From an uncultured Lachnospiraceae bacterium (GTDB lineage Bacteria > Bacillota > Clostridia > Lachnospirales > Lachnospiraceae): a DNA stretch of 64,000 nt. The translations under genes were made by a program, and so were the position numbers. The notes beneath the pieces were generated by a model, which was not told where the DNA came from, searched no databases, and was given only the letters and a program-made list of their open reading frames with translations. Positions 58,808 through 62,741 of this stretch are shown here, piece by piece; position 1 is the first letter of the stretch, and every line of letters begins with the position of its first letter. The stretch covers positions 8,268 to 72,267 of the forward strand of contig CANDGI010000013.1 in assembly GCA_947384285.1 (NCBI GenBank), read 5' to 3'.

Positions 58808-58892
58808 GCAAGGAAACACTTATCGACGAATGCCTCTTTTTGTGCTATGATAATGGATGTATTACCATAGACAACAGAAAGGGGCATTTTTG

Positions 58893-61670
58893 ATGGACGA
58901 ATCATCAGATGATAAGTCAATAAAATATATTACTGCAGGCCTTTTAGCCCATGTGGATGCAGGAAAAACAACCTTATCGGAGGCTCTGCTGTATACTGGC
59001 GGCAGCATCCGCAAGCTGGGACGGGTGGACAACGGGGATGCCTTTTTGGATACCTGCCAATTAGAACGGGCCAGGGGCATTACCATATTTTCCAAACAGG
59101 CGCTGCTGCAGGCCGAAGATATGGTGGTTACGCTTTTGGATACCCCGGGCCATGTGGATTTTTCAGCGGAAATGGAGCGCACCCTGCAGGTTCTTGACTA
59201 TGGAATCCTGGTAATCAGCGGAGCGGACGGCCTGCAGGGCCACACCCGTACCCTGTGGCGGCTGCTGGAAAAATATCAGATTCCGGTATTTCTTTTTGTC
59301 AACAAAATGGATCAGCCAGGAACAGATAAAGAAGCGCTGATGGGACAGCTGCGTGCAGGGCTAGATGGGAACTGCCTGGATTTTACCCAGGCAGATACGG
59401 AAGAATTTTATGAAAATGCAGCCATGTGCGAGGAGGAAGCGCTGGAATATTTTCTGGAGCATGGCAGCCTTAAGAAAGAACAGATTCAGGGAATGATTGC
59501 CAGGAGAAAGCTTTTTCCATGTTTTTTTGGTTCCGCCTTGAAGCTGGCAGGCATCCTGGAATTCCTGGAAGGCTTTGGAACCTATGCCTGTCCCAAGGAA
59601 TATCCCGGGGAATTTGGCGCAAAGGTATTTAAGATAACCAGGGACAGCCAGGGGAACCGCCTTACCTGGCTGAAAATTACCGGGGGAAGCTTGAAAGTAA
59701 AGACAGCGCTTACGGTAAACTCCCCATCATGCCTGGCCAGCCGTCCGGCGGACTCCATGGATGTCCCTGCTATGGAAGCCGGAGGCTTTCATGGTAAACA
59801 GGAAAAAGTAAACCAGATACGCATTTATTCTGGGGAGAAATATGGGATGGTGGATGAAGCAGTTCCCGGGATGGTTTGTGCGGTGACAGGATTGAGCGAT
59901 ACCAGGCCGGGAACCGGGCTTGGAAGGGAGCAGCATGCCATGCCGCCGCTTTTAACGCCGGTGCTGACCTATCGGCTGGATGTCCCAGAAACCTGCGATA
60001 CCGCTGTTATGCTGTCAAACCTGTACCAATTGGAGGAGGAGGAGCCGGAGCTTCATATTGTCTGGGATCAGCAGCTTAAGGAAATACAGGTGCAGATTAT
60101 GGGGGAGGTACAGCTTGAAATCATAAAGAGCCTGATTGCAGAGCGGTTTGGGGTGGAGGTAACCTTTGGGGCAGGAAATATTTTGTACAAAGAAACCATC
60201 GCCCATCCGGTGGAGGGCGCGGGCCATTATGAGCCCCTGCGCCATTATGCAGAGGTGCATCTTTTGCTGGAGCCGGGAGAGCCGGGAAGCGGGCTTGTCT
60301 TTGACACCTGCTGCAGTGAGGATGTGCTGGACAAGAACTGGCAGAGATTGGTATTGACCCATCTGGAGGAAAAAATGCACCGGGGCGTACTGACGGGTTC
60401 TGAGATTACAGATATGAAAATTACGCTGGCTGCAGGCCGCGCCCATCAAAAGCACACAGAGGGAGGGGATTTCCGGCAGGCCACCTACCGGGCGCTGCGG
60501 CAAGGACTGATGGAAGCGGAATCCATCTTGCTGGAGCCATATTATAATTTCCGGCTGGAAGTGCCGGAGTCCATGATCGGCCGGGCGATGACAGATATTG
60601 ACAGGATGCATGGAACCGCAGAACCGCCCCAGATACAAGGGGAGATGGCAGTATTTACCGGCAGCGCCCCGGTGGCAGCTATGGGGGATTACCAGAGGGA
60701 AGTGATTTCTTATACCAGAGGAAATGGAAGGCTTTCCTGCAGCCTGAAAGGATATGAGCCTTGCCATAATTCCAAAGAGGTTATAGAAAAGACAGCTTAT
60801 GACCCGGAGCGTGACCTGGAGAACTCCCCGGATTCTGTATTTTGTGCCCATGGAGCTGGTTTTTTGGTGAAATGGGATGAAGCAAAATCCCATATGCATG
60901 TGGAACTCCCGGATTTTCTGCGGAAAAAAATCCAGGGCAGCATTCCGGTAATGGAAAGGGAGAACCTCAAGGAACAGGCAGGGCGGCAGAAGGATTTGAA
61001 CGAGGAGGCCTGGATCGGGGAAGAGGAAGTGAACGCCATACTCTCCCATACCCTGGATGCCAATAGAAGGGAAAAGCAGCCCGGGAAAAAGGGATTTCAT
61101 AAGAAAAAAAGCGTATCCGCCCAGAGAGCCGCTCCTGTGACCCGCACCTACCAGAGCCAGGAGCCCAAAGAAGAATATATGCTGGTGGATGGCTACAATG
61201 TGATTTTTTCCTGGGAGGATTTGAAGGAGCTGGCGGAAGCAAACATTGACGGGGCAAGGGGAAGGCTCCTTGATATCCTTTCCAACTATCAAGGAGTCCG
61301 CAGATGCAATATGATTGCAGTGTTTGATGCCTACCGGGTGCAGCAGCATAAAACGGAAATCCTGGATTACCATAACATCCTTGTAGTGTTTACCAAGGAG
61401 GCAGAGACTGCGGATCAATATATTGAAAAGTTTGCCCATGAAAATGCCCGGAAATACCGGGTGACCGTGGTAACCTCCGATGGCTTGGAGCAGATTATTA
61501 TCCGGGGCCAGGGCTGCGGGCTGATTTCTGCCAGGGAGTTCCAGGAGGAAATCAAATCATCTATGGAGACAGCCCGGCAGGAATATGAAGGAAAGCAGGA
61601 AAAGAGCAGGAATTATCTCAAGGATGCCATTCCAGAGGAATTTAAGAAAAGGATAAAGGAGGAAGGCTAA
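58893..61670 (+). CDS. TetM/EF-G-like translational GTPase fused to a C-terminal NYN (YacP/Rae1) ribonuclease domain
   Basis: AHVDAGKTT, RGITI, DTPGH, NKMD; C-terminal VDGYN, VFDAY, TADQYIE, VTSD. Confidence 0.9.
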   Translation: MDESSDDKSIKYITAGLLAHVDAGKTTLSEALLYTGGSIRKLGRVDNGDAFLDTCQLERARGITIFSKQALLQAEDMVVTLLDTPGHVDFSAEMERTLQVLDYGILVISGADGLQGHTRTLWRLLEKYQIPVFLFVNKMDQPGTDKEALMGQLRAGLDGNCLDFTQADTEEFYENAAMCEEEALEYFLEHGSLKKEQIQGMIARRKLFPCFFGSALKLAGILEFLEGFGTYACPKEYPGEFGAKVFKITRDSQGNRLTWLKITGGSLKVKTALTVNSPSCLASRPADSMDVPAMEAGGFHGKQEKVNQIRIYSGEKYGMVDEAVPGMVCAVTGLSDTRPGTGLGREQHAMPPLLTPVLTYRLDVPETCDTAVMLSNLYQLEEEEPELHIVWDQQLKEIQVQIMGEVQLEIIKSLIAERFGVEVTFGAGNILYKETIAHPVEGAGHYEPLRHYAEVHLLLEPGEPGSGLVFDTCCSEDVLDKNWQRLVLTHLEEKMHRGVLTGSEITDMKITLAAGRAHQKHTEGGDFRQATYRALRQGLMEAESILLEPYYNFRLEVPESMIGRAMTDIDRMHGTAEPPQIQGEMAVFTGSAPVAAMGDYQREVISYTRGNGRLSCSLKGYEPCHNSKEVIEKTAYDPERDLENSPDSVFCAHGAGFLVKWDEAKSHMHVELPDFLRKKIQGSIPVMERENLKEQAGRQKDLNEEAWIGEEEVNAILSHTLDANRREKQPGKKGFHKKKSVSAQRAAPVTRTYQSQEPKEEYMLVDGYNVIFSWEDLKELAEANIDGARGRLLDILSNYQGVRRCNMIAVFDAYRVQQHKTEILDYHNILVVFTKEAETADQYIEKFAHENARKYRVTVVTSDGLEQIIIRGQGCGLISAREFQEEIKSSMETARQEYEGKQEKSRNYLKDAIPEEFKKRIKEEG
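59714..59799 (-). repeat. Family B repeat copy inside the GTPase coding sequence
   Basis: Reverse complement GTTTACCATGAAAGCCTCCGGCTTCCATAGCAGGGACATCCATGGAGTCCGCCGGACGG.. matches the copies at 34439 and 42701. Confidence 0.8.
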
Positions 61671-61747
61671 TGCGAAGCATTATTAAAATGCCTTCTGACG
61701 ACTTGCCGCCGGAGTGAAGCAAAGGGGCATTTCACTGAAAAAGGAGG
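61657..61747 (+). repeat. Family A, copy A4
   Basis: AGGAGGAAGGCTAATGCGAAGCATTATTAAAATGCC...GGCATTTCACTGAAAAAGGAGG. Confidence 0.85.
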
Positions 61748-61757
61748 AAGAGTGAAG

Positions 61758-62741
61758 ATGGAATTAATAAACCGTCCCCGCAGGCTGCGGGGAAGTGGAA
61801 TTTTGCGTAAAATGGTACGGGAAACCAGAATGGATAAATCCTCTTTGGTATATCCTATGTTTGTTGTGGAAGGAAATAATATCAAAGAAGAAATCCCTTC
61901 CATGGCGGGGCAGTACCGTTACAGCGTAGACCGGATGGAAGAAAAACTGGTCGAGCTTCAGGATGCAGGAGTTTCCAGCATTATGCTGTTTGGAATTCCT
62001 GCGGATAAGGATGAGATGGGAAGCGGAGCCTATGCCCAGGATGGAATTGTCCAGAAGGCATTCCGCAAAGCTAAGGAAGCCTGTCCGGGGCTGTATCTGA
62101 TTGGGGATGTTTGCATGTGCGAGTATACCTCCCATGGCCACTGCGGAATACTTTGCGGCCAGGACGTGGACAACGACAAAACCCTTACATATCTGGCAAA
62201 AACGGCGCTTTCCCAGGTACAGGCAGGGGCGGATATGGTGGCTCCTTCCGATATGATGGATGGGCGTGTGGCAGCAATCCGCAGGATGTTAGATGAAAAT
62301 GGGTATATCAATACGCCCATTATGTCTTATGCGGTGAAGTTTGCTTCTTCCTTTTACGGGCCATTCCGGGATGCGGCGGATTCCGCTCCGGCCTTTGGCG
62401 ACCGCAAATCTTACCAGATGGATTACCACAACCGCAGGGAGGCGTTAAAGGAGGCTGCGCTGGATGCGGCGGAGGGCGCGGATATCCTGATGGTGAAGCC
62501 TGCCATGGCTTACGGGGATTTGATTCGGGAGGTAAAGGACAGGACAGATCTTCCCATTGCCGCTTACTCGGTCAGCGGGGAATATGCCATGGTAAAAACA
62601 ACGGCACAAGCAGGATTTATTGATGAAACCAGCATTATGTGTGAAATGGCAGCCAGCGCCTTTCGGGCAGGAACCGATATCTATCTCACCTATTTTGCCC
62701 AGGAACTGGCGAAGTGCATGGATGATGGATTGATTGGATGA
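61758..62741 (+). CDS. hemB: Porphobilinogen synthase
   Basis: RPRRLR, DVCMCEYTSHGHCG, APSDMMDGR and MVKP motifs; GTG 61752 is an alternative start. Confidence 0.97.
   Translation: MELINRPRRLRGSGILRKMVRETRMDKSSLVYPMFVVEGNNIKEEIPSMAGQYRYSVDRMEEKLVELQDAGVSSIMLFGIPADKDEMGSGAYAQDGIVQKAFRKAKEACPGLYLIGDVCMCEYTSHGHCGILCGQDVDNDKTLTYLAKTALSQVQAGADMVAPSDMMDGRVAAIRRMLDENGYINTPIMSYAVKFASSFYGPFRDAADSAPAFGDRKSYQMDYHNRREALKEAALDAAEGADILMVKPAMAYGDLIREVKDRTDLPIAAYSVSGEYAMVKTTAQAGFIDETSIMCEMAASAFRAGTDIYLTYFAQELAKCMDDGLIG

Follow-up and report, generated by a model that had tools for sequence, protein, structure and literature searches.

A translational GTPase fused to a Rae1/YacP nuclease is the main form of Rae1 in Clostridia and a candidate ribosome quality-control factor

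In Clostridia, the nuclease Rae1 (YacP) occurs mainly as the C-terminal part of a larger protein, fused to a translational GTPase, and in this form it replaces the stand-alone enzyme across the class. The gene described here represents this fusion in an uncultured Lachnospiraceae bacterium. It lies at 58893-61670 on the plus strand of a 64,000-nucleotide stretch of DNA (contig CANDGI010000013.1 of assembly GCA_947384285.1, positions 8,268 to 72,267), referred to here as the window. Judged by its sequence, the GTPase half belongs to a subfamily of its own, nearest to the Tet ribosomal protection proteins and not one of them. The complete protein is probably, with some reserve on our part, a tethered form of Rae1, gated by GTP, that would cleave mRNA where ribosomes have stalled or collided.

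Work from 2025-2026 describes Rae1 as the nuclease that, in Gram-positive bacteria, cleaves the mRNA of collided ribosomes and passes these on to transfer-messenger RNA (tmRNA) (PMC12407103; PMC13622287; bioRxiv 10.64898/2026.10.09.757949). These papers report neither a ribosome-bound Rae1 structure nor the route by which the enzyme reaches collided ribosomes. The fusion makes recruitment of Rae1 to ribosomes a concrete, testable hypothesis and may show how the nuclease reaches stalled ones. The architecture is already known. Atkinson 2015 (PMC4342817) noted a TetM-like/NYN_YacP fusion in 'ten species of clostridiales', and Matelska et al. 2017 (PMC5499597) found the same fusion in 'some Clostridia', both leaving its function open; the window gene shares architecture and taxon with that family and is a member of it. 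New beyond these reports are its prevalence as the main form in the class, the replacement of free Rae1, which the fusion excludes, the separation of its GTPase subfamily from the Tet proteins, the existence of unfused orthologues, and a repeat insert. The 2026 preprints (PMC13622287; bioRxiv 10.64898/2026.10.09.757949), one of which surveys Rae1 in 18,663 genomes, do not mention the fusion. A preliminary description of the gene, made from the sequence alone, knew of no functional characterisation, and the literature indeed yields no functional study of the fusion.

The protein is divided as follows, with amino acid (aa) positions counted from the chosen start codon.

58893-61670, plus strand: whole open reading frame, 925 aa plus stop, a translational GTPase-Rae1/YacP NYN fusion with an intact reading frame
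58929-59576, plus strand: G domain (aa 13-228), Pfam GTP_EFTU, E 3e-46
59613-59903, plus strand: domain II (aa 241-337), Pfam EF-G_D2, 26.9 bits, just below the 27-bit cut-off
59715-59795, plus strand: in-frame insert of 26-27 aa in a domain II loop (aa 275-301), one unit of a 78-79-bp genomic repeat
59955-60170, plus strand: domain III (aa 355-426), Pfam EFG_III
60177-60518, plus strand: domain IV (aa 429-542), Pfam EFG_IV
60528-60776, plus strand: domain V (aa 546-628), Pfam EFG_C
60750-60908, plus strand: family-specific C-terminal module (about aa 620-672), conserved in fused and unfused forms
60909-61178, plus strand: charged tether (aa 673-762), mostly disordered by composition and low model confidence
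61179-61658, plus strand: NYN_YacP (Rae1) domain (aa 763-922), Pfam PF05991

The preliminary description had read complete G-domain motifs, EF-G-like domains, a charged linker and an NYN domain at about 61170-61670 from this sequence, and the Pfam search bears out each of these, with five GTPase domains running from GTP_EFTU to EFG_C and NYN_YacP behind them. The four G motifs are AHVDAGKT (G1, aa 19-26), RGITI (G2, aa 61-65), DTPGH (G3, aa 83-87, with the catalytic His87) and NKMD (G4, aa 137-140), and all of them, His87 included, are invariant in 60 of 60 family members. The full AlphaFold 2 (AF2) model has a mean predicted local distance difference test (pLDDT) score of 85 and a predicted template modelling score of 0.69. 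It is confident for domains I-V, with the insert in domain II as the exception, for the C-terminal module and for the NYN domain. A Foldseek search with the whole model returns EF-G family structures only.

In the genomes sampled, clostridial Rae1 is mostly fused. Across the family, NYN_YacP matches occur in 176 of 201 genera, nearly always exactly one per genome. Among the 150 matches listed, about 132 (roughly 88%) lie in open frames of 845-1080 aa and about 11 in frames of 172-260 aa, the remainder being disrupted or cut by contig ends. A class sample of 300 genomes, each at least 90% complete, contains a match in 198; among the 150 matches listed there, about 91 (roughly 60%) are fused, in at least 20 families, and 55 are free. 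Fused and free forms were counted by eye from open-frame length, with frames of at least 840 aa taken as fused. Both halves are present in all 20 fused genes that were extracted and in all of the best 120 database relatives. The closest named relatives of the window protein are Lachnospiraceae, and named carriers include Blautia, Dorea, Agathobacter, Butyrivibrio, Lachnospira, Faecalibacterium prausnitzii and Ruminococcus, as well as Intestinimonas butyriciproducens, Flavonifractor, Anaerovorax odorimutans and Fusibacter. Several of these are major gut genera (Blautia, Dorea, Agathobacter, Faecalibacterium, Ruminococcus), whose Rae1 comes attached to a putative factor-site GTPase.

The replacement of stand-alone Rae1 follows from three observations: a single NYN_YacP copy, the fused majority, and an empty slot where the free gene is found in relatives. 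A relative with free Rae1 (G137, L005:1649-6154) has the cluster cysE-cysS-mrnC-rlmB-yacP-sigH, and yacP of Bacillus subtilis stands in the same neighbourhood (Matelska 2017, PMC5499597). The source assembly of the window (3.23 Mb, 83% complete) has cysS-mrnC-rlmB-sigH on another contig (C63:461-3744), where the yacP slot between rlmB and sigH is empty: rlmB ends at 1180, the sigH match starts at 1051, and there is no yacP between them. The only yacP-like sequence of this genome, and its single NYN_YacP match, is the window gene.

The two halves are connected by a tether rich in E, K, A, R and S, most of which is predicted to be disordered. Among 48 fused proteins it measures 67-111 aa, with a median of 83.5, and it contains one semi-conserved helix, from W707 to N724; pLDDT falls below 50 at aa 695-709 and 721-755. 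Both the sequence and the length of the tether vary, which would suit a leash and not a rigid domain.

Three properties of Rae1 frame the mechanism that we favour. [quoted passage not shown] In the fusion, the N-terminal 670 aa would bind the factor site of the 70S ribosome, by homology, with domain IV directed toward the decoding centre, and the GTPase half would hydrolyse GTP on the sarcin-ricin loop, again by homology. The flexible tether of 70-110 aa would keep Rae1 near the mRNA of the bound ribosome or of a collided neighbour, and the nuclease would cut the mRNA there, leaving a truncated message for tmRNA rescue as in the B. subtilis Rae1 pathway. GTP binding and hydrolysis would limit the time that the nuclease dwells at the ribosome. 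The sequences themselves show the domain layout, two conserved active sites, the displacement of free Rae1 and the distance from true resistance proteins; from these we infer that the protein binds ribosomes, has mRNA as its substrate, is specific for stalls or collisions and is gated by GTP. The source genome encodes both tmRNA and MutS2. Delivery of the nuclease to stalled ribosomes by the GTPase had been proposed in the preliminary description, and the proposal now stands on firmer ground because the fusion replaces free Rae1 in Clostridia and because the 2025-2026 work presents Rae1 as a collision-triggered mRNA endonuclease.

MutS2/RqcU and SmrB offer a parallel, since they also combine a ribosome-binding or NTPase module with a small nuclease domain that acts at collided ribosomes, and SmrB, like Rae1, feeds trans-translation. 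Their folds are unrelated to those of the fusion, however, with an ABC-type ATPase and an SMR domain in place of a translational GTPase and an NYN domain.

Several points weigh against a GTP-gated, tethered Rae1. The literature holds no experiment on any family member. No NYN_YacP match exists in about 12% of the genera in the family, which makes the function dispensable. Some genomes without any NYN_YacP match carry an unfused orthologue of the GTPase, and the GTPase therefore has a role beyond delivery, one for which Rae1 is not needed. The window copy itself carries a repeat-derived insert in domain II. Finally, the factor site and the -12 cut are far apart on one ribosome, so the mechanism needs either a long tether or binding to the trailing ribosome. 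A picture in which the factor site simply is the cleavage site does not hold; the tether matters.

By the general arrangement of disomes, the mRNA at -12 of the leading ribosome should be the stretch that enters the trailing one, near the trailing factor site. Binding to the trailing ribosome would thus place the nuclease well, and binding to the leading one would require a tether that spans the 30S subunit. A more specific form of the tethered mechanism is possible, and we put it forward tentatively: the GTPase may represent an unrecognised class that senses stalled or collided ribosomes and is recognisable by its invariant domain IV tip and its C-terminal module, with the fusion, as a GTP-gated nuclease, docking in the factor site of the trailing ribosome and swinging Rae1 to the incoming mRNA, at -12 of the leading one. 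If this is true, free Rae1 of Bacillus may be recruited via the same surface, and the bounded tether length would set the distance from docking to cut.

The unfused orthologues bear on what the GTPase does by itself. Genomes of the same family that have free Rae1 also carry such an orthologue, unlinked to the Rae1 gene. These copies are 650-698 aa long, share 42-46% identity with the window protein, fall below the same tet_protect cut-off (given below) and have the same domain IV loops and C-terminal module as the fused forms. One family (f38) has GTPase and Rae1 both as free genes, five genomes (G216, G231, G244, G262, G292) have the GTPase with no NYN_YacP match, and many families have free Rae1 without the GTPase. 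Megaplasmids of Ligilactobacillus salivarius carry an unfused orthologue with 50.6% identity that groups with the fused clade. The GTPase thus has a function in its own right, and the fusion is a link of the Rosetta-stone type that ties this function to Rae1.

Orthologues of this kind, some of them in genomes with no Rae1 match, would fit a GTPase that is itself a rescue or recycling factor, splitting or resetting stalled ribosomes, so that the fusion co-localises the mRNA cut with ribosome release and aims nothing. The analogy with MutS2, an NTPase joined to an SMR nuclease-type domain, points the same way, as does the ability of EF-G to split ribosomes together with ribosome recycling factor (Atkinson 2015, PMC4342817). 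We nevertheless regard this explanation as unlikely: the fusion is kept in at least 20 families with a bounded tether and with free Rae1 lost, which suggests that physical coupling matters, and no splitting partner or conserved neighbour appears at 21 loci.

A single origin of the fused clade was considered and set aside. Its support in the Shimodaira-Hasegawa-like approximate likelihood ratio test (SH-aLRT) is 100 and drops to 20 once the unfused L. salivarius gene is added, and the joint clade has 100. In the tree, a pre-fusion relic and a secondary loss would look alike for this gene. The tree of the NYN domain, weakly resolved with its 167 columns, places fused domains with unfused ones of the same order (SH-aLRT 97); it is compatible with one fusion event or with several. 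One fused gene in the class sample (G307:C2:126183-128758) consists of two frames on the same strand, of 588 aa and 351 aa, and may be disrupted or truly split.

The nuclease half matches PF05991 with E 5e-50 and 170.1 bits against a gathering score of 24.6, over model positions 1-162 of 166. Its motifs, VDGYN (aa 765-769), VFDAY (aa 810-814), ETAD (aa 838-841) and VTSD (aa 860-863), stand where the preliminary description had located DGYN, VFD, TAD and VTSD, and supply the four Asp residues D766, D812, D841 and D863. This agrees with the definition of NYN_YacP by a GYN motif after the first Asp and at least four active-site Asp (Matelska et al. 2017, PMC5499597); catalytic residues were assigned by alignment and from that study. 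The domain matches the B. subtilis YacP structures 5MQ8 and 5MQ9 at E 5e-20, with VDGYN, VFDA, ETAD and TSD aligned to the same motifs. Most NYN motif residues are at least 98% conserved in 48 fused proteins, the four Asp among them as read from the conservation line, and the pLDDT of the AF2 domain is about 95. Because of the structure match, the conserved Asp motifs and the high pLDDT, the nuclease is very probably active. Like B. subtilis Rae1, it combines an NYN_YacP domain, DGYN and three further Asp motifs with a helical C-terminal tail; the B. subtilis enzyme, though, is a separate protein of about 170-180 aa (181 aa in the PDB chains), and here the domain forms the C-terminal end of a 925-aa GTPase.

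An active nuclease, placed on the ribosome by the GTPase, might also be directed at rRNA or tRNA, in order to degrade or inactivate damaged ribosomes or to mature rRNA, as in the 'rRNA RNase' idea of Atkinson 2015. The neighbourhood of NYN_YacP genes, with mrnC and rlmB, first suggested rRNA or tRNA processing, and the tether would let the nuclease reach rRNA near the factor site. All experimentally defined substrates of Rae1, however, are mRNAs that are cut in a translation-dependent way, and the fused NYN domains both group with unfused ones of the same order, in the weak tree mentioned above, and match B. subtilis YacP at the highly conserved motif residues. A target in rRNA or tRNA is accordingly quite improbable.

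Profile comparisons separate the GTPase half from the resistance proteins. The best NCBIfam model is tet_protect (NF012153), with 397.7 bits, about half of the curated cut-off of 775. The sub-models for Tet(M), Tet(O), Tet(W), Tet(Q) and Otr(A) give 235-301 bits against cut-offs of 900-1425, and the EF-G model TIGR00484 also fails, with 267.6 bits against 659.4. True ribosomal protection proteins in related genomes reach 819-834 bits. The fusion GTPase is only about 30% identical to the true resistance proteins of the same bacterial family, and in a maximum-likelihood tree fused and unfused GTPases cluster together (SH-aLRT 99), the resistance proteins forming a clade of their own (99). The distribution of true resistance genes is patchy, with occurrences in 7 of 61 genera of the family, sometimes in two copies and always in genomes that also carry the fusion.

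The tip of domain IV is equally distinctive. Its two loops read GHYEPLRHYAEV (aa 444-455) and GRAHQKHTEGGDFR (aa 515-528). At loop III, the fusion family has the consensus G(R/K)AHxKHTxGGDFR, where resistance proteins have YYSPVSTPADFR and EF-G has GSYHxVDSS; in the window protein RAHQKHTEGG replaces YYSPVSTPA, which contains the YSPVS tip with the equivalent of Pro509, and the loop keeps the length it has in Tet(M). Loop I has the family consensus GHFEPLRHYAEV and lacks the GGxGQ(F/Y)G of EF-G; here it reads YEPLRHYA and is 4 aa shorter than in EF-G. Among 60 members, the invariant loop residues are H445, E447, P448, L449, H451, Y452, H521, T522, G524, G525, D526, F527 and R528. An invariant tip that is unique to the family points to a specific contact in the decoding region.

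Loop III of Tet(M), Pro509 included, overlaps the binding site of tetracycline; the C-terminal extension of that protein, with its C-terminal helix, is important for function (PMC7456112, PMC4750697). Judged by these features, displacement of tetracycline by the fusion GTPase is unlikely, and we stop short of dismissing it fully because loop III has the length of that in Tet(M) and because Tet(M) mutants in this loop stay active when its shape is maintained (PMC4750697). The GTPase half resembles Tet(M), Tet(O) and Tet(W) in its five-domain EF-G-like body, its intact G motifs and its best profile and PDB matches, the closest solved relatives being Tet(O) and Tet(M). It differs from them in loops I and III, C-terminus, clade and score, and also in distribution, patchy for the resistance genes and widespread in family and class for the fusion.

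Given the different tip and C-terminal module, the separate clade, the low score, and a wide distribution with no mobile context found, a ribosomal protection protein against tetracycline or another antibiotic with the nuclease as an accessory is very improbable, despite the profile and structure matches, the loop length and the Tet family name that the Prokaryotic Genome Annotation Pipeline (PGAP) gives to some members. This agrees with the preliminary description, which had doubted a role in antibiotic resistance and proposed the phylogenetic comparison; its remark that the architecture is often labelled as tetracycline resistance applies to some source names. Automatic naming of some of these genes after the Tet(M) family could inflate resistome counts in gut metagenomes, and the annotations need correcting.

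The source assembly holds no second Tet-like GTPase, and a canonical fusA was not found in it at 83% completeness. The only EF-G-like frame found there (C5:32432-34522, 696 aa) has degenerate G motifs, with GHGGSGKT, DTPGY instead of DTPGH and TEMD instead of NKxD, and looks like an EF-G paralogue.

The C-terminal module occupies the place of the short, helix-bearing C-terminal extension of Tet proteins. It is common to fused and unfused forms and is lacking in ribosomal protection proteins and EF-G. Over about 50 aa it follows the consensus GYxPCHN ... DSVFCxHGAGFxVxW ... YMH, with C624, Y636, D641, S648, F650, C651 and G654 invariant and W661 and H669 nearly so. The full model predicts a helix, a beta-hairpin and short helices at a pLDDT of about 88-95. 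A profile search with the module matched 946 cluster representatives; module and tether match no Pfam family even at E 10. Folded alone (pLDDT 78), the module has no structural match with Z of at least 2 among 48,161 chains, a result that carries little weight at this small size. A zinc site formed by C624, C651 and H669 was considered and is at best a possibility, only the two Cys being invariant. The L. salivarius orthologue (L150:3992-5926, NZ_LT604075.1), which shares the module, sits in divergent orientation next to rpsN (ribosomal protein S14) and the gene of a 'putative metal homeostasis protein'; these neighbours and the conserved Cys and His of the module hint at a link to zinc.

The insert in domain II belongs to a repeat family of the source genome. 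Copies of the 78-79-bp repeat stand in tandem on at least five other contigs (C45, C6, C1, C4, C72; blastn), and those on C45 directly adjoin mutS2. No insert is present in relatives with 86% and 82% identity; in one with 94%, about 1.6 repeat units stand in the gene and keep the frame. In the AF2 model the insert forms a disordered domain II loop, with pLDDT below 50 at aa 279-298.

At its 5' end, the open frame, the single long one of the region, extends over 58857-61670 on the plus strand. Translation probably starts at the ATG at 58893, 7 nt downstream of an AAAGGGG ribosome-binding site (58879-58885); the N-termini of relatives correspond to about residue 8-13 of the 925-aa reading. One promoter-like site lies just upstream of this start.

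58823-58851, plus strand: promoter-like site with TCGACG, a 17-nt spacer and a TG-extended TATGAT, a consensus match only

In a promoter scan, the region does not exceed shuffled sequence in the number of sites. No Rfam match lies upstream of the fusion frame, where a leader or attenuator RNA like that of tet(M) was looked for.

An all-against-all BLAST of flanking frames finds no neighbour conserved across 21 loci from different families; the flanking families span at most a few of these loci, and one group occurs in five, with variable position and strand. PADLOC gives no defence-system match, and no mobile context was found around the gene. Plasmid records in the database contain the fusion only twice, both times in very large 'plasmid' entries. 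Because the fused GTPase parts form one clade, no neighbour is conserved and plasmid records are so few, the gene looks vertically inherited and not mobile.

Within the window, the gene is flanked by a LacI-type regulator and by hemB (61752-62741). The sole Rfam match, downstream of the fusion, is to the GA-cis RNA (RF02987) at 61654-61738, which scores 57 bits (E 9e-11; gathering score 34.7). The match shares 17 nt with the end of the fusion frame and occupies the gap up to hemB, and this RNA may be a leader of haem genes.

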